From Lama guanicoe (Eukaryota), in assembly GCA_013239625.1 (NCBI GenBank), contig MU053881.1, forward strand, positions 10,778,873-10,842,872: a stretch of 64,000 nt of DNA. The letters run 5' to 3'. Under the pieces are notes generated by a model. It was not told the DNA's origin and did not search any database. It was given only the letters and a program-made list of their open reading frames with translations. The translations under genes and the position numbers were made by a program. This document shows, one piece after another, positions 3,819 through 63,689 of this stretch. Within the stretch, counting starts at the first letter, position 1, and the number at the start of each line of letters is the position of its first letter.

Positions 3819-5445
3819 ATAGAGTTCCATGACCTTTTATTCTCATGATATGCTTTAATAAATAGAAAGCTAAAAATTCTAGTGTAAAATATTCACAGTC
3901 CTTACAACAGCCTTTTTTTCTTTTTCCCTCTCCACTGGTCTAATTTTTTAGGCTCTTCTTTAAAATAAAATTAAAAAACAAACAAACAAAAAACCTTCCT
4001 TAAAGTTATTTCCCCAAAGAAGCCCCTCTCTTTCAGCAGCTGGGGGAAGGTACAGTGAGTCACAACTAATCAAAATCCCTTTGTGTAGTGTTGTTATTCA
4101 TGCATTGTAAGATTTCACTTTCCCATTTCCTTAATGCCACGTCTACTTTCTACTCTAGATTGTAATTTGCTTGAGGGCAGAGGCTGCACTTTCCCTTTGT
4201 TGAGCACAAGTATTTTGAAGGCGCCTGCGGTAATGTGACCACTCAGTAGAGTTTTGTTGATGGTAGTGATGTTTCTGAAAATGTCTGAGAAAAAAGCTGA
4301 CAACTCTGGCCCGCAGTGGCCTTCCCTTGTTTAATCTAAAGTAAGTACCTTTCCTTCCTCCCATAAACAATAATGTGCCAGGCAGCGCACATGAAGGGAA
4401 GTGAGTCAGAAGAGCAATTCATTCTCCCAATGCCCTTATGTGGCTCCTTCAATGCCCTAGAAGTCTGCTCACAGATTTATTTCAGGCATACCTGGCGGGC
4501 AGTTTCTAGACTCCATCAGCAAGCACAAGACCTGATTCTGCTCTCTCTTCCTCTATCCTCACATTCTTAATGCTTCAACTGTGCCCTTGCGACTTTTCTG
4601 TTAGTTAAGAGATGTACAACATAGGGGCGGAAATCAATCTTAATTAAGGCGAACCCTGGAATTATGATCGAAGGAAGGTACATTAGCCCAGTGCTCCCAG
4701 ACCCCCATACAGTGCTGTTATTGACGTCTGGACAGATGGGGGAAGTGAAACAGGAGTCAATACTTCGATCCACTGTGGTCTCTAAGGATCTGCATTTTTA
4801 ACACATCCGTAATGAGTGCTGGTGGTGTTTAATAAATACACAGCAGCCCCTAAGAGTGGCTTTGCGCGTAAAAGGCCCCGAAAGAGTCCCTGGAGCCTCT
4901 GGTTGGTGGGCCAAAGTGGGCTCAGCCTGGTGGAATTGAGGGGTTAAGAATGGTCTGTCCCAATGTCTTTAATGTCTGGGGAGCCCTTCCCCCAAGGTGA
5001 TCAGTCTACTCACATAACCCATTTGAAGAAGTTAAAAATGCAACTACTTCTCTAATGTAGAGGTGGTAGCCACCTGTCGCCCCATCCAACACACACTCCT
5101 CTCCTCATCTAGGACTGTTACCAGCCCCTTCATGTTCACCTCAGAAGTTTAATTCTACCTCAACCTCAAGTCTCCAGACTCCTGACCACTGTGAAGTGCT
5201 TTATGAATATCCTTTGACCTGAGAAGGCCATCCAATTCTCTTCTCTGGCAAAACTCGTGCTAGGATTCGAGAAGCCTGGCTGGTCTCTGTAACATGACTG
5301 AATGGAGAAGGTGTTTAATCAGAAGTGTCACACTGAAGTATCTACTCTTGACCCTCTTTTACTTGAGATGCAGAGAAACCACTCTGAAGAGAGAAGATGT
5401 GTCCGAAGTGACAAAGAAAAGAGATAAAAAAAAAAACTTCCAGTG

Positions 5446-5663
5446 TTTCAGTCATATAGGAAGATGCATTTATTATTTTTCACCATAAGTTAGTGCAAGA
5501 TTTTAAATATAGTTCCTCATGCTATATAGTATCAACTTGTTGTTTATCTATTTTATATATTTTAGTATCTGCACATCTCAAACTCCCACCTGCTACCGCC
5601 CCCTGGTAACCATAAGTTTGTTTTCTATGTCTGTGAGACTATACTTCAATAAAAATATAGTTT
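5446..5663. mobile_element. Young L1 3' fragment with 5' inversion (twin priming)
   Basis: ~5446-5636 is antisense L1 3'UTR (cttgttgtttatctattttatatat; ggtaaccataagtttgttttctatgtctgtgag). ~5637-5663 is the sense terminus (gactatacttcaataaaaa). TSD aaaaaaa(c/t)ttccagtg at 5430-5445 and 5664-5679. Confidence 0.85.
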
Positions 5664-5939
5664 AAAAAAATTTCCAGTGGTGAGAGCCTGAATCAACCCT
5701 GAGACTGACGACAACTCAGCTGAGGTAAGACTGCACTTTCTAACCCCCAATTGCATGAAATGCTCCTATACTCTGTGTCTCTCTCTCTGATTCTCTCTCT
5801 ATATGTATATACATATATATACATATACACATACATATATATATTTGATTTGCTTAAGCTAGTGTTAGAAAATGTCTACTTCTTGGAATTCAAAGATTTA
5901 ATTAAGTCCACTGCTTCCTCTGTCAAAAATTTGCTGATC

Positions 5940-9149: not shown

Positions 9150-12100
9150 ATATCACAGTCAGTATACGCCATTCTGTTTCTGCCACTGAGTACAGGTATA
9201 AAACTTAAACAAAATGCATGGATCAGACATCTGGGGTCTCTGATAAGTAAGAAACAGCAGGCAAATTTGGAGTAGGAGGCCAGAGTTCAAACACCCTGAA
9301 CTAGTGGTGAGGTTAGATTTTTTTTTTTTCTGTCCAGTATCTCCTGGCCTAAACTTAATTTACCAGAACCAGGTACTGGGGAACAGAAAGATAAAGCTCT
9401 GTAGTTTTCTCTGTTCTTCTTTGCCCCAGGATCCAAGCAATCCCACAGTGGCAGGAGCATCCAGTAGTAACAGGAGGTTGCAAGAGTCAAACATCTAAAG
9501 ATGAGGACACTTCCTCCCCAGTTGGTAGACCTGTGCCTCCAAGAGAGTGAGGCCAGTTGCTGTTACATTATTCCTCTCTCTCTCTCTCTGGCTTCTCATT
9601 GGTTGGCCTTCGCTGTGGGCATACGTGCAGAAATGTATGGCAGAGTGGAATAACCAGCCCCAGATTTCTAAACGGAGGACAGGAAAGAGGAGACCCAGGC
9701 AACTGGAAAGCAATGGAAAGATTACAGAGAGGGAAACACTTGGAAAAGCAGCCTCATAAAGTTGCTTATGAAATCCCAAGTGTACACCCAAGAAACACAA
9801 ACAAGGATTTGTATTATTCAGCAAAGAAAAGGCTACGAGAGCCAAACTAACAGACAGACCAATCCCCATGATGCAACTGACCATGGGATAATGTGCACAC
9901 CAGGTAAATCCGAATGTTACTGAAAAGACTTTGAAAAATGAACTGATACTGGAATTATAGCCCACAGAAAGCAGTATGGAACTTGGAACCTGTACTTAAC
10001 TAGAGTGACTTAACAGAAAAAAAGTAAGTATTCTGCATAATATTTACACAAAACCCAGAGTCTTATGACATAATATTCATAATTTGCAGGATATATTTCA
10101 ACATTATTCAGCATATAAAAAATCAGACCAATCTAAATTCACATTTAGAAAAATCAACTGATGCCAAATAGGAGATAATACAGATGTCACAATGACTTAA
10201 ACTAGCTATTACAAAAATGCGCAGCAAGTAACTGGGGCCACTGCTGAATCCAACAGAGAAATAAAACTTCTCAGTAGAGAAATAAAAGATATGAATAAGA
10301 ACTAAATGGATATTTTAGAACTGAAAGCTTCAGTAACAAAGATGGGCTGAATGGGCTTCACAGCAGAAGAGTGATGACAGAGAAGTCAGCGAACTTGAAG
10401 ATAGATGGGCAGAAACTATGCAATTTGAAGAACAGAAAGAAGAATTCTGGAAGAATGAAGAGGTCCTTAGTAACTTGTAGGATAATAATGGAAGGTCCAA
10501 TATTTGTGTAATTGGAATCTGAGAAGGAGAGAAATGCATGACGGGACACATATTTGGATGATGATGATGATGATAATAATAATAATAATTATTATTATTA
10601 CAACAACAACAACCCTACATATTCATGAAGCTCAGCAAATGCCAAACAGGAAAAACCTAAGGAAACTCACGCCCAGTTATATCAAAATAAAACTGCTAAA
10701 ACCCTAAAGCAAACAACAAAATTTGAGGGAAAAAAATAAAATAAAACTTGTGAACTTTCCAGCAGGAAACAAGAATTTAAATGAAAACTGAAGATTTCTC
10801 ATCAGAAACTATGAAGGTCCAAAGAAAGTGGCACAGTAGTTTTAAAGTGATGGAAGAAAAGTCTTTCATCCCCAAACGCTATACCCAGTGACAGCATACT
10901 TAAGGAATAAAAGTGAAATAAAGACATTCTCAAATAAAAAAAAAATTAAGAGCACACCCAGCGGCAGCCTATTCTAAAAGCATTATTCCAAGGAATTTTA
11001 TCAGACCGAAGGGAAACCGTACCAGAAGGAAATGCTGAACAACTGTAATGGCGAGCAACAGAGACTATCAATATCTGAATAGATATGACAGATTAGTCTG
11101 TTGCTCTTGATTTCTTTAAACTATGTTTCACAATTAAAAGCAAAACTGTAACATCGTTTGATGTGGCTGTCAATTATCTGTAGCTATACCATATAAGGCA
11201 ACTGTAAGATAAAGGAGGGAGAGGAAAAGCATCTATATGGTAGTAAAATTCCTACATTCCATTAGGAGTGCTAAAATATTGATGTTAAGTAGATCGAAAA
11301 AAAAGTTAAGTATGTACATTGTAATCCCTAGAGTGACAACAAAAAATAACCTATACACACGTTTCAATTTAAAGCACGATATGAAGATTAAAATGGGATA
11401 CGATGATTTTGAAATAGTCATAATAAGGCAAGAAAAGGTAAACAAAAGAACAAAAAGCAGAGGGAATAAACAGAAAGAGAATAATGTGATGGTGGAACTA
11501 AATAAAGACATATTAATAATCATAAATGCAAATGCTCCAAAAACAGCAATTAAAAGATATTATCAGCATGGATTACAAAATTATACATACCAATTATACG
11601 TACCACATACATGATGTGTATAAGAAACTCAGTTAACAGATAATGATACAGGTAGGGTAAAGTAACAAGATGGAAAAAATATACCATATACTAATTGAAA
11701 AACAAACAAACAAACAGGGGTGACTATATCAATATCAGGCAAAGTTGATGTCAGAGCAAAGAAAGTTTCAGGGACAATGGCAGATAGCAAGGGTCAATTA
11801 ATTAGGAAGTCATAACAATGTTAAATAAAAACGTTAAAGTACATGAAGCAAAAAGTGGCAAAACTGCAAGAAGAAACTGACAAACTCATAATTATGGTTG
11901 AAGATTTAAACATCCCTCTTTTAGTAAAAGATACATTGGGTAGGCAGAAAACCAGCAATGTACAGAAATGAGCAAGACCATCAACTGGAAGGAGCCAGGT
12001 GACATTTAAAGCCCCACTAAATAAGAACAAAATACACATTCTTTTCAAGTGCTCACAGAATATTCACCAAGATAGACCGTATCTTGGGCACAAAAAGTAA

Positions 12101-12976: not shown

Positions 12977-13612
12977 GGCAATCCCACTCCTGGGCATATA
13001 TCCAGAGGGAGCCTTAATTCAAAAAGATGCATGCATCCCCAAGTTTATAGCAGCACTATTTATAATAGCCAAGACATGGAAGCAACCTAAATGTCCATTG
13101 ACACATGACTAGATACAAAAGCTGTGGTGTATTTATACAATGGAATACTACTCAGCCTTAAAAAATAATAAAATGATGCCATTTGCAGTGACATGGATTG
13201 ACCTGGAGATCATCATTCTAAGTGAAGTAAGCCAGAAAGAGAAAGAAAAAAATATGATATCACTTATATGTGGAATCTAAAAAAAAAAAGATGAATTCAT
13301 TTACAAAACAGAAACAGACTCACAGACACAGAAAACAAACATGGTTACCAGCAGGGAAAGTGGGTGGGAAGGGATAAATTGGGAGTCTGAGATTTGCAGA
13401 TACTAATATATATATAAAGTAGATAAACAACAAGTTTATACTACATAGCACAGGGAACTATATTCAATATTTTGTAGTAACCTACGGTGAAAAAGAATAT
13501 GAAAACAAATATATGTATGTTCGTATATGATTGAAGCATTATGCTGTACACCAGAAATTGACACGGCATTGTACACTGACTATACATATATATAATACAA
13601 AAATTACGAAAA
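12977..13612 (+). mobile_element. Young L1 3' end (ORF2 C-terminus + 3'UTR), camelid type
   Basis: gcaatcccactcctgggcatatatccaga..gcagcactatttataatagccaagacatggaagcaacctaaatgtcca..ggaatactactcagcc..cagggaactatattcaatat..attatgctgtacaccagaaattgacac. Confidence 0.93.
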
Positions 13613-14479: not shown

Positions 14480-15560
14480 GAACAGCAGTATGACTCTGAA
14501 GTTCCCTTTTAGTCTCACAAAACAATCAAAATAAAAATAGGAAGAACAGTAAAACCACACAGGATAAACATCTTCAGTATCACTAGGAGACAGAGAATGG
14601 GCAACCTTCAAATTCCTGGAAGCAGAAGGAAAAAAGAAACACCTTTCTACCGCCCCCACCTGTGGTCCCCATCACAAGACCGTAGGCGGGATACACAGAA
14701 GAAAATAACAGAAAGGGACCGAGTTCATAGGAAGCACAGTTAAAAACCACTTTCAGAAATGAGAAGCAAAACAATAAATGTAAAGAGGCAGGACGTCAAA
14801 AATATTCTTGAACGAGGTACCACACTTGCAAAACAAAAATAAAAGAAAGCAGACTGCATCCACACGAAACTACTGTAAAATGCTAGACATGCAAATACAA
14901 AACCTGCTGAAGAAGACTTCCTCCCAGATATGAAGAAAATTTAAACGCAACACCCCAAATTAAATGACCTCATATGAACGTTTTAGAAGTATAAAAACAC
15001 TTGGCTTCAGAAATGCAAAAACCAAAACCAAAAACAAAAACAAAACCTAAAAGGGGAAATGGAAAAACAATAAAATGGGAAGAATTAAAATTAGGGTTGC
15101 TTGAACTAATGGCATACATGGAAGAAAAAGACAAAATTTCACCGGAAATAAAGACTATCTTGGAAGGTAAACAAGAAAGACCAGAATTAAATAACAAGAC
15201 ATTGAAGAAAATCACAAACAACAAGAGAATGAAAATGATTTCAAAAAAGAAGCAAAAAGGGATGAAGAGAAATTGATTGAAATGGAAAACATGTAAAAAA
15301 GCCAGACATTTATGTTATTGATGTCCCTGAGAAAGAAGATAAAAAACATAAAAATGAACTAATATTTAAAATTACAACTCAAGAAGAAAATCTTGAAATT
15401 AAATCTTAATCTACACATTGAAAGTGCTCATGAGTAGGAGGGAAAATCGATCCAGAATAATCAATTCTGAGACATATCCTAGTAAAAGTACTAAACTTAA
15501 AGATAAAGAAAAATCCCCAGAGGCTCAAGACTAAAATATGTTTGCAATCACTTATGTTTG
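14480..15560 (+). mobile_element. Ancient L1 ORF1-like / HAL1-like fragment
   Basis: Lys/Glu-rich coiled-coil-like remnant (ORF 15001-15276) and gttattgatgtccctgag..aatctacacattgaaagtgctca..gagacatatcctagtaaaa..aaagataaagaaaaatcc, typical of ORF1 sequence. Confidence 0.6.
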
Positions 15561-15609
15561 AGAATTAGTTTCACAACATATTTTTCAAATACACACAAAG
15601 AAAGGCAAG

Positions 15610-18600
15610 AGTGGAACTTTTTCATAAATGGTGTTGAAGCCACTGAACAGTCATATGGTAAAGGACAGAATTGGATCCACTGTCACACCACAAAAGCGTA
15701 ATTTCTAAATATGTGAACAATTTAAGTGTAAAGTGGAATCTCACAAGGGCTAGAAAAAGATGGATAATTCCTCTAGAGCTTCAATGTAGGATAAGACTTT
15801 CTAACCGTAACTAAGAATCCATATGAAATAAAAGAAAATATCAATAAAATTTACTTACTTAATTAAAAAGAAACATGGTAAAAATAAAACACTATCCAAA
15901 GACAAGTAAATATATTTGTAACATTTATCAGAGATTAAGGGTTAATAGTCATGTTTATAAAAACTTTGAAAATTTGAGGCTAATAGGACCAAGAACCCTA
16001 TATTGGAATGAACAAAATATATGAACACACTATTCACAAAAAGAGATGTAATAATGGCCATTAGACCTATGAACAGATATTCAATATCATTTAGAAGAAG
16101 ATAAATACAAATTCAGTGACACCGAGGAACCATTTCTCTTGCATCAGACTGGCAAAAATTTAAAACATTGACAATAACCTCTGTTGGCAGGACTGAGGGG
16201 AAATAGGCCCTTTCATACATCGGTGATGGAAATGTAAATGGCCTGACTTCTGTAGGAGGAATTTGGCAATATCCAGCAAAATATCACAACCACATCTACT
16301 CTTCAATCCAGTAATTCTACTTCCAGCAATTTATCCTGAAGATTCACTTCTAAAAATATAAACATGTACAAATAGGAGTTATTCATTGCAGTATTTGTGA
16401 TTACAAAATACTGTGAGTACTCAGATTTTCAAGTATAAGAGATTGGTTTAATAAACTAAGGTATTTGTAATAAATTATGGAGTACTTCGCAGCTATAACC
16501 ATGAATGAAAAATATTTCCATGAATAATATGGAGTAACTTCCAGAAGATAATTTAAGTGGGAAAAAGTACAAAAAGCATGTAGTACATTACATTTTGTGT
16601 AAGAAAGAGAAAAAAGTTATATATATATTTATACATATGCATATTTATATATTTACTTTTCATTAGAAAAAAATATGTTTACTTTTCATTATAAAATGCA
16701 GCAAAGAAAGAAAGCCAAAAAAGACAAGGTAGTTGGTTATCTACAAGACGTAGGGAATGTGGTGAAAGAGACAGGGCAGGAATAATATTTCTGTGACTGA
16801 AAGTATTATGTATCTTTTGGAAGTTATATTAATAGTCTATACTTTAAAAATTAAACTTTATTGTTTGCTTCAAATAAGAATGGGGAGGCTGAAATGTTTT
16901 AAAACTAGGAGGAAATCAAAAGAGTCTAATTTTATGGCAGATAAAATATAATCACACAGACAGAAAGGATGGAAGGAAGGAAAGAAGGAAGGACAGAGGG
17001 AGGGAGGGAGAAGTCCTAATTCCAATAACTAAGGACCACAGTATTAATCTACATACTTTCTGTATGAGGAGCCCAGGTGGAAGTCTAAACTTTTTTTTTT
17101 TTAGTAGCTTTGCTTATTGTAGTGGTTTGCACATAAAAATTCCAAAACTATTTTAGAATCCTGAATTACGTCTACTAGTTTAGATGTATTATATGATTGA
17201 GCAAAAGAATAAATGTATTGAGGCTGTAGGAAGCCAGGATTCTCACTACAGGGAGACTGGAAACACATATAAGAAATGGGGTAAAGGAAGAAAGCATCTT
17301 GTGAGACTGGTTTGGGATTAAAGGTATAGCTGTGAATACGTAATTTCTAAAATATGTATCTATTTGTCAATTAATGTTGACAAGCACATGTAGGTGCGCA
17401 TGTGTGTAAGTAGAAGTATTTATATGTGTAAGCATATATGTATATGCACGCATGTATTTCCTAGCCCTGACTGCTAAAAGGGCTAAGAAGCCAAGATGCC
17501 TCAGTAGCAATGAACACATCTTGTCCCCGAAACTTGATCGCTACCCTCAGACCCCACCACAGGGAACCAGAGCTGCTAAGAGAAACGGCTGATTCCAAAG
17601 GCAGTGCCGGGCAGGGACAAAATGAACCTGGAACATCATGTTACGCCAGCAAGCAAGGAAGTGCTTAAAAAATGGTGAGGTCGTATCACAAGAACTCAGG
17701 AACTAGACTGAAGGGGTTCCCCATGGCCAAATCAGATACTGTTAGCACCAAAGTGATGGTATAGTAATGGACTGTAAGCCAACAAGACGTAAGAAATGCT
17801 GAGTCCCTAATACCTAATAATAAATAGATCGATAAATGAGAGAGTAGGAAGAGACCCTACTTACAGTAAAATGCTGAAGGACGACTGGTAAATGTGGAAA
17901 GAAGGATGAAGTTGGGAAAACATCATTTTGCAACAATCATGGTAAAGCTTGAATCAGGCAACATTATCATGGATGCTGAGTCTGGGGGAAAATTTTGAAG
18001 GAGAACAGGAAAAATTCATAAATTTCCATTAACGTTTCTCTTCACAGACTGTTTATTAGTTGGCGGGAGAAAAAAATAATAACAGTAATCATGAAATGGA
18101 GAAATCTGATGACACTTTGAATGTGTGAGCAAAATTAAAATAACCAATGAGGGACAGATGGACGTCGCGTGCCTCCAGATGTGATGCTGAGAGATGAACG
18201 TGATATTATTTATTTCAACCAAAAGGAAGGAATGTTGTTTTTTATTAACAAAAATCATGTGTGGCAGGATATATTTGATTTTTAAGAAATATCCATGCCA
18301 TGAAAGACATAAACTTGTGGAAATGTTTCAGAATAAGTAGGCTAAAGAGAGATGATAGTGACATGGACTCACTCACTCTAGTCTAGATCCTGTACTTGGG
18401 CAGTGGCAGGGGATGGAGTGGAGATGGGGCAGGTACAGACATGATCTGTTGATAAATTTGGAGTATGAATGTTAGATTAGGTAAAATTATGATTTTTATA
18501 TAAATGTATGAAGAGGATAACTACGCTATGGTAATATAAGAAAACATTTCTTTTCTTAGGAAATACGCAATGAAGTATTTAGGGTTAATGGGCCATTGAT

Positions 18601-18856
18601 GATATACGTATATATGTAACATAACCTCTAATGCGTGGGAGAAAAAATTACGGGGTGGATGCATGTGTGTGTCTCTGTGTGGTGGGGAATAGGGACAGTG
18701 GGAGAAGGATGAGACACAGAGACAGAGAGGAAGCAAATGGGATAAAAAGTGAGCAGTCAGAGAACATAAGCAAAGGATTTATGGTATGCTTTGCACTATT
18801 GTTACCGTTAGAACTTTTGTAAGTTTGAAATTATTTCCAAATTAAAAAAAAAAAAG
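15610..18856 (+). mobile_element. Old L1 3' region (L1ME/L1MC-type ORF2 end plus long 3'UTR)
   Basis: ttttcataaatggtgttg; catcagactggcaaaaattt; ggaatttggcaatatc; cagtagcaatgaacacatc; ttcttaggaaatacgcaatgaagtatttaggg; terminus ttttgtaagtttgaaattatttccaaattaaaaaaaa. May comprise more than one element. Confidence 0.8.
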
Positions 18857-21592: not shown

Positions 21593-22522
21593 CATTTTCC
21601 TTAAAATCACATCACTGCATTTGTCAGGAGAGCCACATCATCAACAAACTGATAGATCAGTAAACATTAGAAGAATGGCTAAAATCAGATGAATTAAAGG
21701 CTTTATGGGGATATAACCTACCTTTTTCTTAAATGGATGTATAAAAATAATAGGTGTTACAGGTTTTCCCTACATGTGGGCGAATGGGAGAAGGCAAAAT
21801 CCTATTTCAACAGCTAGGACCACGAAAATGGTTTTGTAAAAAACAATTTAAAATCCTGCTACCCAGTTAACAATGCCAAGCAAAATTCTAACAATAAAAC
21901 ACCATTGTAACTAAATAATATGGATTATGTTAATAATTCTTTGGAATTGTATCCACATCGACAAGCATTTGTTGTGTATCTAATATAAACTCGGAACTGA
22001 GCTAATACTGAGCAAACAATGTGGGTATTATTGGTTTCAATCCTCAAAGAACTTACACTTCCAGGCAGACATCATGAGTTCCTAAACAATGAATACTGCA
22101 TAATGAAGAAAAGGGAATGACTGAGGTTTTCAACTGACTGGACACAGCTAATGAGGACACTGTTAGTTTAATAATAATGATAATAATAACATAGGTTAGA
22201 AGATCGAGTTTGAGGATAAAAACAGTGTGATCGGTTGAGGTGGGGTAAGGCTAAAATGCACCTAAGGGAGAGGATTCTAGTAGATCAAAATACAGTGTGA
22301 TACCTAGACACACACTAGAAGAGTGGACAGTTCGGACTGTACCTGTGAATAAGACCCCTCTAAGAGAATGCATAAAGGAGAAAGATACAAGGATTGGAGG
22401 AGATGTTTATGAAAGAGAAGATCTAAACATAAAGGTAAGATTATAATCAGCTTTAATAGAAAAAGGAGTAATTAAGTGTCAGGCTATGGGATGAAATAAA
22501 ATAAGAATTAAAGATAGCATGT

Positions 22523-22880
22523 TATATGTGGAATTAAAAAAAGGCAAATGAACTTATTTACTAGACAGAAAGAGACTTACAGGCATAGAAAACAAACTTA
22601 TGGTTATCAGTGGGAAGAGGGTGGAAAGGGATAAATTGGGAGTTTGAGATTTGCAGGTACTAATATATATAAAATAGATAAACAACAAGTTCATACTGTA
22701 CAGCACAGGGAACTATATTCAATATCTTGTAGTAACTTATGGTGAAAATATAAAAATGAATATATGTATGTTCATGTATGACTGAAGCATTATTTATGCG
22801 CTACACCAGAAATTGACACCTTATAAACTGGCTATATTTCAATAAAAATATATATATACAAAATAAAAATGAAAAAAATT
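22523..22880 (+). mobile_element. Young L1 3' end (head of the putative transduction)
   Basis: tatatgtggaatt..atagaaaacaaacttatggtta..gggataaattgggagtttgagatttgcag..cagggaactatattcaatatcttgtagtaac..tatatttcaataaaaa; same family as 12977-13612. Confidence 0.92.
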
Positions 22881-22888
22881 AAGAACAG

Positions 22889-23545
22889 AAAGATCCATGC
22901 CCCCAGTGTTCATAGCAGCACTATTTACAATTGCCAAGATATGGAAATAACTGGTGTCCGTTGACAGATGAATGCATAAAGAAGTGCATACACACACACA
23001 CTATGTGTACACACGGTGGAATACTATTCAGCCATAAAAAAGACATCTTACCATTTGCAACAACTTGGATGGATCTTGAGGGCACAGGGCTAAGTAAAAT
23101 AAGTTAGAGAAAGACAAATACCATATAATCTCATTTACATTTGGAATCTAAACAAACAAATAAAGAAACAAAGAAAAAAACAAGCTCATAGATACAGAGA
23201 AGGGACTGGTGGTTGCCAGGGGTGAGGGTGGGAGGGGGTGTGAAAAATGGCTGAAGGGAATCAAAAGGTACCAACTTTCAGGTATGAGATAACTAAGTCA
23301 CGGGAATATAATGCACAGCATGGTGACTATAGTTAATAATACTCTATTACATATTTGAAAGTTGCTAAGAGAGCAGATTTTAAAAGTTCTCATTGCAAGA
23401 AAGAAATTCTGTAACCATATGGTGACAGATACAAACTAGATGTATTGTGGTGATCATTTCACAATATACACACATATCGAATCATTATGTTGTATACCAG
23501 AAACTAATATAATGTTATATGTCAATTATACTTCAAGAAACAAAA
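22889..23545 (+). mobile_element. L1MA9-like 3' end
   Basis: gttcatagcagcactatttacaattgccaagatatggaaa..catggtgactatagttaataat..tttgaaagttgctaagagag..tgtggtgatcatttcacaatata..aatgttatatgtcaattata. Confidence 0.85.
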
Positions 23546-25191
23546 GACATATCTTTTTGGATTTTAGTGATGGACAGAAGCCTCATCATATATGTTAATG
23601 CTACTACAAAATGTATACAGAATGTGGGCCAACTATATTATAATTCAAGGGCCAATGACCTTGACTGTTCCTTGAACCAATGTCAATAATAAATTAAATC
23701 TGTTCTGTATGGACAAAAAAAGAAAAAAAAATAGCATGTGGTGGTTAGTCATTTCCTGATGACTTTTACAGTAGCCTTTCCACTCATGGAAATGTGAAAG
23801 GAAAATGGACGTTTTTAATGATAAATCTGATACAGGGGTTCAGTGGCCACATGGCTCCATAAAACGGACGTACCCAGTTTTCTTTACTGATAAATATCTC
23901 AGTTTACTTATGTTCTATGCGCTGGCATAATCTAAATGCTTAGGGAAATGAGTGTCTTGAAGAGTTAATGAACTTCCTTAAGCACCTGAGTGATAAACTC
24001 ACTGGGGAAAACAAGATACCATATGCCTATTTGGGAAATTCATAATGCACGTAATTATTCACATTACAGTGTCACGTATGAGTGAATTCTCACTAACAAG
24101 TCTAAGATTAGGCCTCCCATAATACAGTATTATCTAAAGAAGAAAGACTAGGTAAATTAGTTATGAAGAAACCAACTTTCAAGTCCTCCTCCAAAGTTAA
24201 CATAACAGAATGAAGAGCAAGGAACAATTTTAGTCAGAAGCAATCAAGGAGAATATTATAAGTAATAAAGTACACATTTTAATTGCAAGCAAAACCACAT
24301 TTTATTTTAGGAACAAAGGTAAAAATTTTTAATCATATTCCCACACCCTCCTTTTTTTTTTTTTTCCTCTTGCAATTTCACAGTTTGGTTTTTTTGAATG
24401 TCATGATATTTGAAGTTAATTTTCTAAATTTCTATGAACACAAATGAAATAAAAGCAGATTATTCTGATAATTTTTTTTTCTTTGTCACCTTTTCAAATT
24501 GGAATTCATGTATATTAGGTGAAAGATGTTGTAGACAAAGATTGTTAGTGGGGCTCCTGGGGCCTTTTTTTCTGGTTTTGAATTCCTGGCAAACAGATTG
24601 CTGCCGTTCTGACAGTAAAAATAGCAGATGGGATTAATTAAGTGGGTGACAACTCTTCAGACCTACCTAAATTAATATTTTTCTCCAAACAATGTATTCT
24701 GATTATCATAAAACTAAGTGACGTTTATAGAAATAGATTTTGGTCCCACTGATTTTCAAAATGTATTGGGAGCTTTTTTTTTTTCCCTTTATAAGAGCTG
24801 GCTTAGTCTGTTATTTGCATGTTAATCTCTCTAATCATTTTCTTGAAGGAAGCAATCATATCCAAGGAAATACATCTTGTTTGTAATGCTAGAGTTTGTC
24901 CTGACCTCAGACACTCCTTCCTCTGCAAGAATAAAAGGTGCACAAGATTAATTTATTCACAGAAATTCTTCTCAAACCCAAACCTCCAAGGAGCAATTAA
25001 TTATCTTCTGTATGAAAACTGCAAATCAACACATCAATATTACATTTTCACCAGGGCTGTTTAAACTATACAGGGTCTTACGGAAAAAGGTCATTTTGTT
25101 TAAAAAAAGTACCATATTTTATCAAATCCAGTACACCATAGACTGACAGAAAAATCGTAATTTCATAGATCTTAAAGTATATATACCCATC

Positions 25192-27688: not shown

Positions 27689-27862
27689 AAAAATATTTTA
27701 TTTATTTATTATTGTATTGTTTAATTTTTTTTTTTTTTTGGTGGGGGAAGGGAGAGAGGTAATTATGTTTATTTATTTTTAGAGGAGGTACTGGGGATTG
27801 AACCCAGAACCTCGTGCATGCTAAGCATGAGCTCTACCACTGGAGCTATACCCTCCCCAACT
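27689..27862 (-). mobile_element. tRNA-derived SINE (camelid Vic-1-like)
   Basis: Reverse complement reads ggggagggtatagctccagtggtagagctcatgcttagcatgcacgaggttctgggttcaatcccc (Pol III A and B boxes) plus A-rich tail. TSD attcaattattt at 27677-27688 and 27863-27874. Confidence 0.92.
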
Positions 27863-36400: not shown

Positions 36401-37345
36401 ATTCAAAGTGAGGCACAGTCTATCCTTTATTGATATATTAGAAGCTCAATGTATGTCGTACAGCTTAATAAACTGGAGTGGTTATAGTCCCCAAACAGTT
36501 GAACAAGAATCCTCTAGTAATACTTGACGTTCAGAAGAAGAACATTTTTCAATTCAGATATAAACTACTATGTGAAAATTAAAATTAAGGAGAAGTTAGA
36601 TGTGAACATCATGAGAAATGGCACCAAAAATACGTGAAAACACATTGTTATAATATTAAACTAATGTTTTCTCCTCAAAAAAAAAAACCCATTAAAAATA
36701 AGGAAGGGTGAGCTTGTGCCCTTTGTAGAAATTTATTATATGATTTGCTAAATTATATTAAGCTCCTGCAAGAAATGACACATATGGGATGACTTTCTAT
36801 TTGAATTTTTGTTTCTTCTACCAGGGTTCATCAAGCTGTTTCATATTTATTTCTCTGATTAATGATATGTCAAAATTCTAATTCTAGTACCAATTTATGG
36901 TGTGTTGGCAACTGGAGAATAAAACAGCAATGCAAACAACAGGCAAAATTGACTTGTATCCATCTTCTTTGAATTCCAGTAAATGTTTCCCAAATGTGCT
37001 TTTCTGTTTCAACCAAACGAAACAGTATAGTCCTATTTCTCTCAATTAATTCTCTCAATTAATTATGTTACTTCTGAGAGTCAAGAATTTCTTAAAGCAC
37101 AACAGTATGGCTGGATGATATGATATAATGTGTTAGTCATTTTGAATTAGAGGTTGCATATTTAAGAGTTTCTATTATTAAGTTTCCTCATTCATAAAGA
37201 CACACCAAATCTTTAAAAGGTTATTTAGTGCAAATGGGTTTCATAGGAATCTTTAAAATGAACATGAATGCTCTGAATTAATAAGAAGTGAAATACAATG
37301 GGATGATTATATTGCATGTGGAGTCAATCAGAAAATGAGAAAAGA

Positions 37346-37493
37346 GGGGGGAAGGTATAGCTCAGAGGTTGAATGCACGCTTAGCATACATGAAGTCCTG
37401 GGTTCAATCCTCAGTCCCGCCATCAAAATAAATAAATAAACCTAATTACCTTCCCCTAAGATTAAAAAAAAATTAAAAAGTAGGTTAAAAAAA
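37346..37493 (+). mobile_element. tRNA-derived SINE (camelid Vic-1-like)
   Basis: ggggggaaggtatagctcagaggttgaatgcacgcttagcatacatgaagtcctgggttcaatcc, with B box ggttcaatcc at 37401-37410, then aaataaataaacctaattacc and A tail. Confidence 0.92.
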
Positions 37494-40400: not shown

Positions 40401-40720
40401 TTTCCCATTTTTATTACAAAGATGCACTATCTGTCAAGAAAATGAAACAATCTCCATGCACTTAAAGAAAACAAGTGGAAAAGAAATAGGCATTAATTGA
40501 CACTTCTTAACAAGTTCCTCCACATCTCGATTTTAATTTTTTTCATCATCACCTCTTCTGAATGAGTCTTTTTCTTCTCTGTTCTTTCCGAGTTATTGCT
40601 TGAATTAATGCTGTTCTTTTACATTGATGAAAGCAAATGTAAATGAAGGCACAAATAGAAAAGCATCATTTTCTTTGGATACTGGCATTCAGGTATCTTA
40701 GGTCATGATCCCCAGAATTA

Positions 40721-40867
40721 TTTATTATTGTATTATTTAATTATTTTATTTTGGCAGAGGTGGGGATAATGAGGATTATTTATTTTTAGAGGAGGTGCTG
40801 GGGATTGAACCCAGGACCTTCTGCATGCTAAGCATGTGCTCTACCACTTGAACTATACCCTCCGCCT
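40721..40867 (-). mobile_element. tRNA-derived SINE (camelid Vic-1-like) with exact 18-bp TSD
   Basis: ggggattgaacccaggaccttctgcatgctaagcatgtgctctaccacttgaactataccc. TSD tcatgatccccagaatta at 40703-40720 and 40868-40885. Confidence 0.95.
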
Positions 40868-41859
40868 TCATGATCCCCAGAATTAAACAAAGAGAGGTAT
40901 AACAATTATTTTTCTTAAGGAATTGGAAAATATAGTACAGAAATCATGGTCCTCTATTATTCCTACCAGTGCACTTCAAGGTGCACGGCTCTATTTCTTG
41001 AAATTAGCTTTTGAACAATCTTGGTCAGCTCCATCGTTATCTTTAATGTCCTCTTCAAATCCTACCTATACCTGGTTCTTGAACTTGGCTTAAATCTCCT
41101 TGATTTTGACTCCCCTATTTTTCCACTTGTAATTCACACCCTGGCTCATTCCTAGTCTGAACGCGTTGAGAAGCAGCTCACCCGATGGAAGCCCTGGCAC
41201 TCGGGACCCTTCCCCATCCAGCCTGCTGGGTTGGTTTACATCACATCCCCACCTGACGCCCCCTGCCCATCTAGCCAAATGTATGATGGGACAATAAGCA
41301 ATTCAATATTTTAAAATGTGTTCCATATTCTGAATACCAGGAAGGTGAACAAATTCAGTGGGGACAATCATAGGAAATTCAAAGTAGATTCTTGTTGGCA
41401 TAATGTTTGCTTTAATATTTTAGATTTCCATATATTTGAAATTGTGATAAGGAGGATAGTCTGAATCTAGATGAATAAAATGAAAATAGAAGTCATTCAT
41501 CTAATAGATTATAATTATTAGCATACTCTTTGTAGAATGTATTCATTTAATTAACCATTTGATCAGCATAGTTGGTTCTAAGTAATTCTTACTATGAGAA
41601 TAGTATTACTTTGTGATAATGATCACAGTTCCCTGCAGTATTTTTGACTTATGGTAGCAGTAATGTTGCAAAGAGTTGATTATTTACTACTTTATAGTAA
41701 GAGTAGAGTTCTTTACCATGGTCTATTTACAGATCTGACCATATTTTTGTTTTGACATTCTTCTCCTTCTGTGCTTTGATACAAAATCTTTGATTGAATG
41801 AAATAATTTAGACTTTTGGGAAACATTGTGCTTTTTCACTTACCATTTATCAGCAAAAA

Positions 41860-61190: not shown

Positions 61191-61465
61191 ACCCTGGAAG
61201 GTGGACACTAATAGTACCGTTTTACAAATACGGAAACTTGACTGAGACATCACATCAATGAAAAGAGAAAACTTTATGCAGCAACTAATTGGTGGAGCCT
61301 GGGTTGCAAACCCATGTAGAGCACATTTCAAATTATCTTCCCAAGACCATGTAGTATTGTTTATTACAGGGAATAAAACAGACAGATTTAAATTTTGATC
61401 TAATCTAAGTTAAAGTCTTCTGAGTTTAACTTTGTTCTGTCTAATCATAGAAATGCAGCGTCTGA

Positions 61466-61587
61466 TCTTATAGTAGAGTGAAAAAGAATATTAAAAAGAA
61501 TGTATGTATGTATATGTATGACAGAAACATTATGCTGTACACCAGAAATTGACAGAACAGTGTAAACTGATTATACTTCAGTTTAAA
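61466..61587 (+). mobile_element. Very short 5'-truncated young L1 with TSD
   Basis: gtgaaaaagaatat..tatgtatgacagaaacattatgctgtacaccagaaattgaca..tgtaaactgattatacttca. TSD aaatgcag(cg/aa)tctga at 61451-61465 and 61588-61602. Confidence 0.88.
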
Positions 61588-63689
61588 AAATGCAGAATCT
61601 GAAACTAGAAGGACCTTACAAACCATGTCCACTGCCTTAGCACCTGATTAAATACAGTTATATAATTTTTAAACTCCTGCAATGGAAAAATATTACAACT
61701 AATTTCTTAAAACTCTATCTTAAAGGAAAGATCCCAAAGAAAAAACAGCTTTTATTTTTGTTCTCTTTCATTTTAGGTGTCAATTTTCCAAAGGCCAAAG
61801 CATATCACAGAAGGAGCAGGGTAGAATTTTCATGACAAATGTTTGTGAACTTCTAGACAGTAATTTCTCTTATTTAGCCATTTGTGCATACTACATGAAT
61901 CACAAGAAAGGCAAGATCCAGCTGGGTAATTAGTTTAAAATTATTATTATTACTGTTATTGTTATAATTGTTAATACAGTTCATAGTGTATTACAATTGT
62001 TTTTTATATTATAAGAAACATACAACCCTGTGTCCTTTGCAAAACATTAATAATAGAGAGATTATCATATGAAAAAGCCACTAGAAACAGGGTGTTGCCG
62101 AAGTGTTTTCTTCCCCTATTCATGTGACACTAATGCAACCTTCAACTCTATATACCAATTACTAAGATGGACTTTGCTTTTATGTTGTTGTTTTGTTGCA
62201 ATTCTTTATAATGGGCAATTACAATATTACTGAGACATAATTTTTAGGTTATGTACCTCTTTTTTAAATCAAAGGAAAAGAAAACAATCAAGTTTGTCTT
62301 AATAGCCCACTAGCTTTTATATTATAGTTCTCTAATTATATAACAAAAAGCACACCAGAAATTGTTCTAGATTATTTTCACATGTAATAATAATTTTATA
62401 TACATAATTCTTCTTTTAGGAACCAATAATAATTCAAGCATACAACAGCGAGGTTAATAAAGCACCTCCTTTGATGTCATTAGTCCATTATAGTATTTTG
62501 TGTCTTCTGTCAGTTCTGTTCTCTGGCCTCATCAAAAGCTTCTATCAGCAATAACTTCCTCATTTTTAAAGTAAGACCTTGCCTAAGGATGTTAGCATTC
62601 TGCTCTGCATTTATCATGTGGAAGGGAACAGACAAAAACAGACTAGATGATCTGTATTACAAGGACACAGTTAAGAACGGGCTGGTTTAAAACATCTGAA
62701 ACTTCAGGAATGCCCTTGAACTTCAATCTCTGCGTTTTAAAATATAATTCTGAAGTAACATGCATAAAAATGCAGAAAGAGAAATAACATATTCAGAACG
62801 AAATAAATCAAAATTATTTCAGATTATTTTATCTCTAAATCGTAAAGTGCATAGCTGATGTATGATGAAGTAAAAAGAAAAGACTTGGTTTGAATCCTCT
62901 CTCTAGTTACTAGCTGTGGCTCTGGGCACTTGCATAACATGGACAAAAAGATGTCTCTAGAGTGATGTACGAGTACATGAATCACAGCCCCTGATGTGGA
63001 GTAGTTTGTTGGTTACTGGGCGCTACTTTCTCCCTTACGTCTGCATTTTCTATTTCTCTGTTCCTAAGACTTCTGTTATCTTGGACTCTTGCTTCATCCT
63101 TTGTTCTGCATCTACGCTATGCACACCGGCCCTCTGCAAATTCATTCACTCTTCTCCAACCCCACTGCCCCTGCTCCTCTCAATGGAACTGCTCCACCAG
63201 ACTTTTAATCTAACCTGCTCCACTGCACCTGCTTTTCTCAGTCTGTTATATAACTTTCAAAGACTTCAATAATCGTATATCAACCAACTATTCTGATTGG
63301 GCCCTTCTAAATTCTGTCATCTATGTTATGCTCAGAAAAAATTGTATTCACCGTGTCCCACAAAACTGTTCCAAGCCCTCTGTCTCAAATGCTCTGCTGT
63401 TTACAAGGCTGTAAACATCACTCAACTCATAGGGAAATGCCATTTTCTTTACAAAGAATTTCCAAATCTTCTTAGTTTTGAGTAATCTAATCCTCCTCTT
63501 AATTTTCAAATTTCAAGATAATATTATTTTCCTATAAGAAAATGTACTCTAGTTAATCTGGAAGGTACACAAAAGCATGTGATAAATTAAAATCATTTGT
63601 AATTCTACAACTGAAGGACACTATTAGTATATAGACCTGTATGCCTCTAGAGGAATAAACTACACAATGTATGTTCTTTTTTATATGTC

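Follow-up and report, generated by a model that had tools for sequence, protein, structure and literature searches.

L1 transcript read-through and target-primed reverse transcription are established processes, and 3′ transduction, itself textbook knowledge, is the commonest known route to an L1, a tail, a piece of flanking DNA and a second tail within one duplication. Partnered L1 3′ transductions were reportedly described by Moran in 1999 and by Goodier and by Pickeral in 2000. According to the available parts of the primate and canine surveys, transductions accompany 2.5–8.8% of the non-reference L1 insertions in three primates, where they are 51–1,570 bp long and mostly lie behind short L1 pieces (PMC4862182), and 322 transduction loci are counted in canines (PMC13103737). 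In the accessible sections of a camelid repeat survey, transduction is mentioned once, as general background (PMC8605555), and a camelid transduction catalogue may be missing from the literature searched.

The locus described here lies in a 64 kb window (the whole stretch of DNA analyzed) of AT-rich, repeat-rich, mammal-like DNA, in which 1,217 bp separate two 13-mers (22510–22522 and 23727–23739) and hold L1 pieces, a tag, an AATAAA and A-tails. More specifically, the insert comprises, on the plus strand, (i) a 5′-truncated L1 3′ end of camelid type with its own AATAAA and a decayed A-rich tail (22523–22879, the body extending to ~22841); (ii) an older L1 3′ end in the same orientation, made of the end of ORF2, the 3′UTR and a tail remnant (22880–23545); (iii) a tag of 169 bp and 34% GC, presumably the transduced flank of the source locus (23546–23714); (iv) an AATAAA polyadenylation signal (23688–23693); and (v) the remnant of a second poly(A) tail (23715–23726), whose A-run extends into the right 13-mer up to 23730. 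This organization is that of the partnered L1 3′ transductions outlined in the available parts of the primate and canine papers, i.e. a 5′-truncated L1, an internal tail, a flank, a new AATAAA and a second tail in one duplication (PMC4862182, PMC13103737), and the carried length of ~835 bp (~0.85 kb) falls inside the primate range, as given in the accessible text (PMC4862182). Unlike the primate and canine cases, the event is old, it occurred in a probable camelid and its cargo is mostly older L1. Furthermore, in what those two papers make available the source locus serves as proof (PMC4862182, PMC13103737), whereas here a transduction is proposed from the structure of the insert. Altogether, the locus displays four of the six defining features of a 3′ transduction: a duplication around the whole insert, a sense-oriented L1 3′ end with its own tail on the 5′ side, a new poly(A) signal with a second tail beyond the carried sequence, and an endonuclease-type insertion site.

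The duplication is 13 bp long, within the 4–25 bp typical of a transduction, and its two plus-strand copies are identical at 12 of 13 positions, the last nine being exact; the coordinates and the exact 9-bp core proposed in a first-pass annotation are thus confirmed. Over 22523–24500, no ungapped stretch matches the left 13-mer better than the right copy does, the runner-up reaching 10/13, and the shared 9-mer is found on the plus strand of the 64 kb at positions 22514 and 23731 only. Since TT precedes the left copy, the insertion site reads TT/AAAG (22508–22513), a variant that is one base away from the L1 endonuclease motif TT/AAAA cited in the available part of a study of L1 chimeras (10.1101/2025.02.02.635956), such sites being common in AT-rich DNA and weak evidence by themselves. 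As a chance control, each window position was used as an anchor, an exact copy of its 9-mer was sought 300–1,500 bp downstream and an A-run was then sought before that copy: 656 of 62,400 anchors had a downstream 9-mer, and six of them also had the A-run. In the loosest version of this control (3 bp slack, 3 kb range), the corresponding counts were 6,016 and 50 out of 60,900, so that overall the exact 9-mer alone concerns 1–10% of the anchors and the 9-mer plus A-run 0.01–0.08%. At the 3′ end of the insert, the AATAAA and the poly(A) from 23715 claimed earlier are indeed present, the A-tail starting 21 nt past the signal; only 3 of the 121 AATAAA on the plus strand of the window are trailed by an A-run within 10–30 nt. 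Given the rarity of anchors with both a 9-mer and an A-run, the small number of signal/A-run pairs and the 10/13 score of the runner-up, it is very unlikely that the bracket arose by chance. A second of these three signals is found at 10906–10945; there, the A-run lies at the start of an A-rich region and comes 19 nt after the AATAAA.

The first L1 was identified by its relatives in the window, the subfamily names being assumed. Self-comparison of the window showed that 22523–22836 is 82.5% identical to a copy at 13265–13584 and that the first L1 is 78–79% identical to three further copies; its mismatch to these four relatives is 12.7, 16.8, 14.2 and 15.6%. The description of this piece as a young L1 3′ end therefore holds as regards the L1 3′ end and its own A-rich tail, but with a mismatch of 12.7–16.8% it is young only in a relative sense. 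In the alignment, the left duplication copy ends at the 5′ truncation point of the first L1. A search for a duplication belonging to the first L1 alone yielded no convincing one, all the candidates being A-rich. Among three same-type L1 copies examined in the window, two display duplications (15/16 and 13/15), and none was obtained at the third or at the copy near 12985. The outer duplication of the insert (12/13) has decayed to a similar extent, suggesting that it and the first L1 are of the same age. From the rarity of the bracket, together with a first L1 devoid of a convincing duplication of its own, we infer that a single L1-made insertion is likely, rather than two. Note that the same-type L1 at 5430–5679 carries a 5′ inversion, its body (5444–5640) lying on the minus strand and its 3′ end (~5639–5670) on the plus strand; it sits inside a 16-bp duplication (5430 and 5664, 15/16) and is a typical twin-priming product. 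Another short same-type L1 3′ end, at 61451–61602, has a 15-bp duplication (13/15).

The next piece is similar, over 370 columns and with 67% identity, to 13020–13368, in the window copy that also matches the first L1 at 82.5%; the similarity involves residues 22886–23236 and the ORF2-end/3′UTR part of that copy, with divergence in the 3′UTR. Judged by this alignment, 22886–23236 represents another L1 3′ end, more distant than the first, which we take to be L1MA9-like; the L1 nature of the piece claimed in the first-pass annotation is hence borne out, the L1MA9 name being tentative. The tag was previously considered as ~170 bp of non-repetitive DNA, which is correct on the scale of the window, where it has no relative beyond chance matches of 13–24 bp; it may be an unrecognized old repeat.

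Both flanks, i.e. 21960–22509 on the left and 23740–23830 on the right, resemble by eye a decayed antisense L2 on the minus strand, the right flank looking like a continuation of the left one. DNA alignment of the flanks with L2-like stretches of the window gave z < 2 throughout (best z 1.8), and none of nine frames matched a Pfam family. For protein-level comparisons, we used 120 metagenome loci with an L2-clade reverse-transcriptase motif (17 with long open frames, up to ~460 aa in the range read; the motif search returned 0 viral contigs), from which reverse-transcriptase profiles were built, the first with 16 non-redundant proteins of 17 and the next with 58 of 60. In free alignment the profile missed both flanks as well as all three control stretches, which makes this assay insensitive rather than negative. 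The forced alignment is colinear across the junction, but 325 of 500 shuffles reached equally high values, as did 607 of 1,420 window tiles. Of the earlier statement that the flanks rejoin as one L2, what remains is thus a colinearity that appears under forced alignment and does not exceed chance, the free alignment being blind to control L2-like stretches. A blastn comparison of the left flank with the 120 metagenome loci gave 12 matches, all short and mostly due to its AAT repeat; the tag, the right flank and a control gave no match to these loci. Elsewhere in the window, a segment of ~4.4 kb at 14480–18850, A-rich and old L1-like, seems by eye to break a further stretch resembling a decayed antisense L2, at roughly the L2 position of the focal insert, with alignments that are not above chance.

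We consider that the insert is probably the fixed fossil of a partnered L1 3′ transduction. If so, an active camelid-lineage L1 would have resided, at a source locus, just upstream of, and probably inside, an older L1 fragment of the same orientation. Transcription would have proceeded past the poly(A) signal of this L1 and through the old L1 (~665 bp) and the flank (169 bp). With the AATAAA now at 23688 as signal, cleavage and polyadenylation of the transcript would have taken place 21 nt further on. L1 ORF2p would then have nicked the target at TT/AAAG and primed on the new tail, and reverse transcription of 1.2 kb would have halted ~320 bp into the L1 body, causing the 5′ truncation and leaving the 13-bp duplication. 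The layout, the duplication and the signal-to-tail spacing can be read directly from the locus; the three pieces would have been contiguous at one source locus, which presumably still exists. Regarding the 3′ transduction as one insertion put forward in the first-pass annotation, the single L1-mediated insertion in one duplication is upheld, and the mechanism is supported in part, as the probable best one.

An unlikely alternative is that one insertion drew on two RNAs, ORF2p starting on a polyadenylated non-L1 transcript (old L1 plus tag) before a template switch or an RNA ligation to the tail of an L1 RNA, which would place the L1 at the 5′ side and the cellular RNA at the 3′ side. Such a course predicts the same single duplication, tail and signal, and the available part of the chimera study documents L1 chimeras formed by template switching or RNA ligation, in which, as here, several pieces share one duplication and the site is an endonuclease motif (10.1101/2025.02.02.635956). 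However, the chimeras described there carry the non-L1 RNA 5′ of the L1 (10.1101/2025.02.02.635956, in the sections accessible), the opposite of the present order, in which the L1 is on the 5′ side with its own tail preserved; in addition, the junction coincides with the tail of the L1 itself, the position expected from read-through. The corresponding reverse-order chimera, in which a cellular polyadenylated RNA was copied first with a switch to the tail of an L1 RNA, and in which no first-type L1 would lie upstream of the tag at its source, is distinctly improbable. If reverse-order chimeras do exist, only an inspection of the source would tell them apart from ordinary 3′ transductions.

It is just as doubtful that two insertions followed each other, the old L1 and tag being the earlier arrival, together with the outer duplication, and an L1 of the first type landing later at the 5′ junction by re-using TT/AAAG. 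The end of the first A-tail and the start of the old L1 do align loosely with 22495–22522, the left duplication region, but this match needs two gaps and, with a score of 12, falls short of the outer match (17); moreover, 34 of the 520 A-rich tiles tested do as well or better. The bases of this candidate inner duplication also align to ordinary L1 sequence at 13014–13035, and the duplication that should be the older is the better preserved. Finally, that the first L1 alone was inserted between ancestral residents, with the outer duplication, the signal and the A-run being coincidental, is highly improbable: although the L2 alignments across the flanks are no better than chance (with a method insensitive to its controls) and exact 9-mers alone concern 1–10% of the anchors, 9-mers with an A-run are rare, both the spacing of the AATAAA and the TT/AAAG site fit as well, and the first L1 would be left without a clear duplication.

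The pairwise mismatch of the first L1 corresponds to a divergence of ~6–8% per lineage. With a slower mutation rate near 2e-9 per year, the insertion would be 30–40 million years old. With the rate of 2.5e-8 per five-year generation, found in the available text of the camelid repeat survey, it would date back roughly 13–17 million years (PMC8605555). Regarding its spread, the best 14 of the 24 sequencing runs listed for 21900–24400 hold 0.71–0.84 of 256 sampled words and represent four organism labels and seven studies. The insert accounts for 49% of this interval, and the old L1, tag and tail for 34%; in view of these shares, all four organism labels appear to carry the insert, the runs being the best holders and hence indicative of spread, not of fixation everywhere. 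The 13–17% mismatch of the L1 and the four organism labels apparently carrying the insert indicate that the insertion event is old. The RNA rows for 21900–24400, with unaligned word shares of 0.06–0.25, were left out of this assessment; the share of 0.25 recorded for one RNA run could stem from intronic transcripts, from carry-over of DNA or from words in repeats.

If confirmed, the insertion would tag one ancient camelid source L1 and provide a presence/absence marker of lineage; as a single fossil case of a known process, it brings no new mechanism and is of little import alone. Besides the L1 pieces, the window contains SINE copies. The only Rfam matches in the window are two tRNA-like SINE heads, both away from the insertion, at 27782–27855 and 40789–40862, and of tRNA-Ala type. 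Three related tRNA-Ala-derived SINE copies, which we take to be camelid Vic-1 elements, are located at 27702–27860, 37344–37451 and 40718–40869 and are 76–83% identical.
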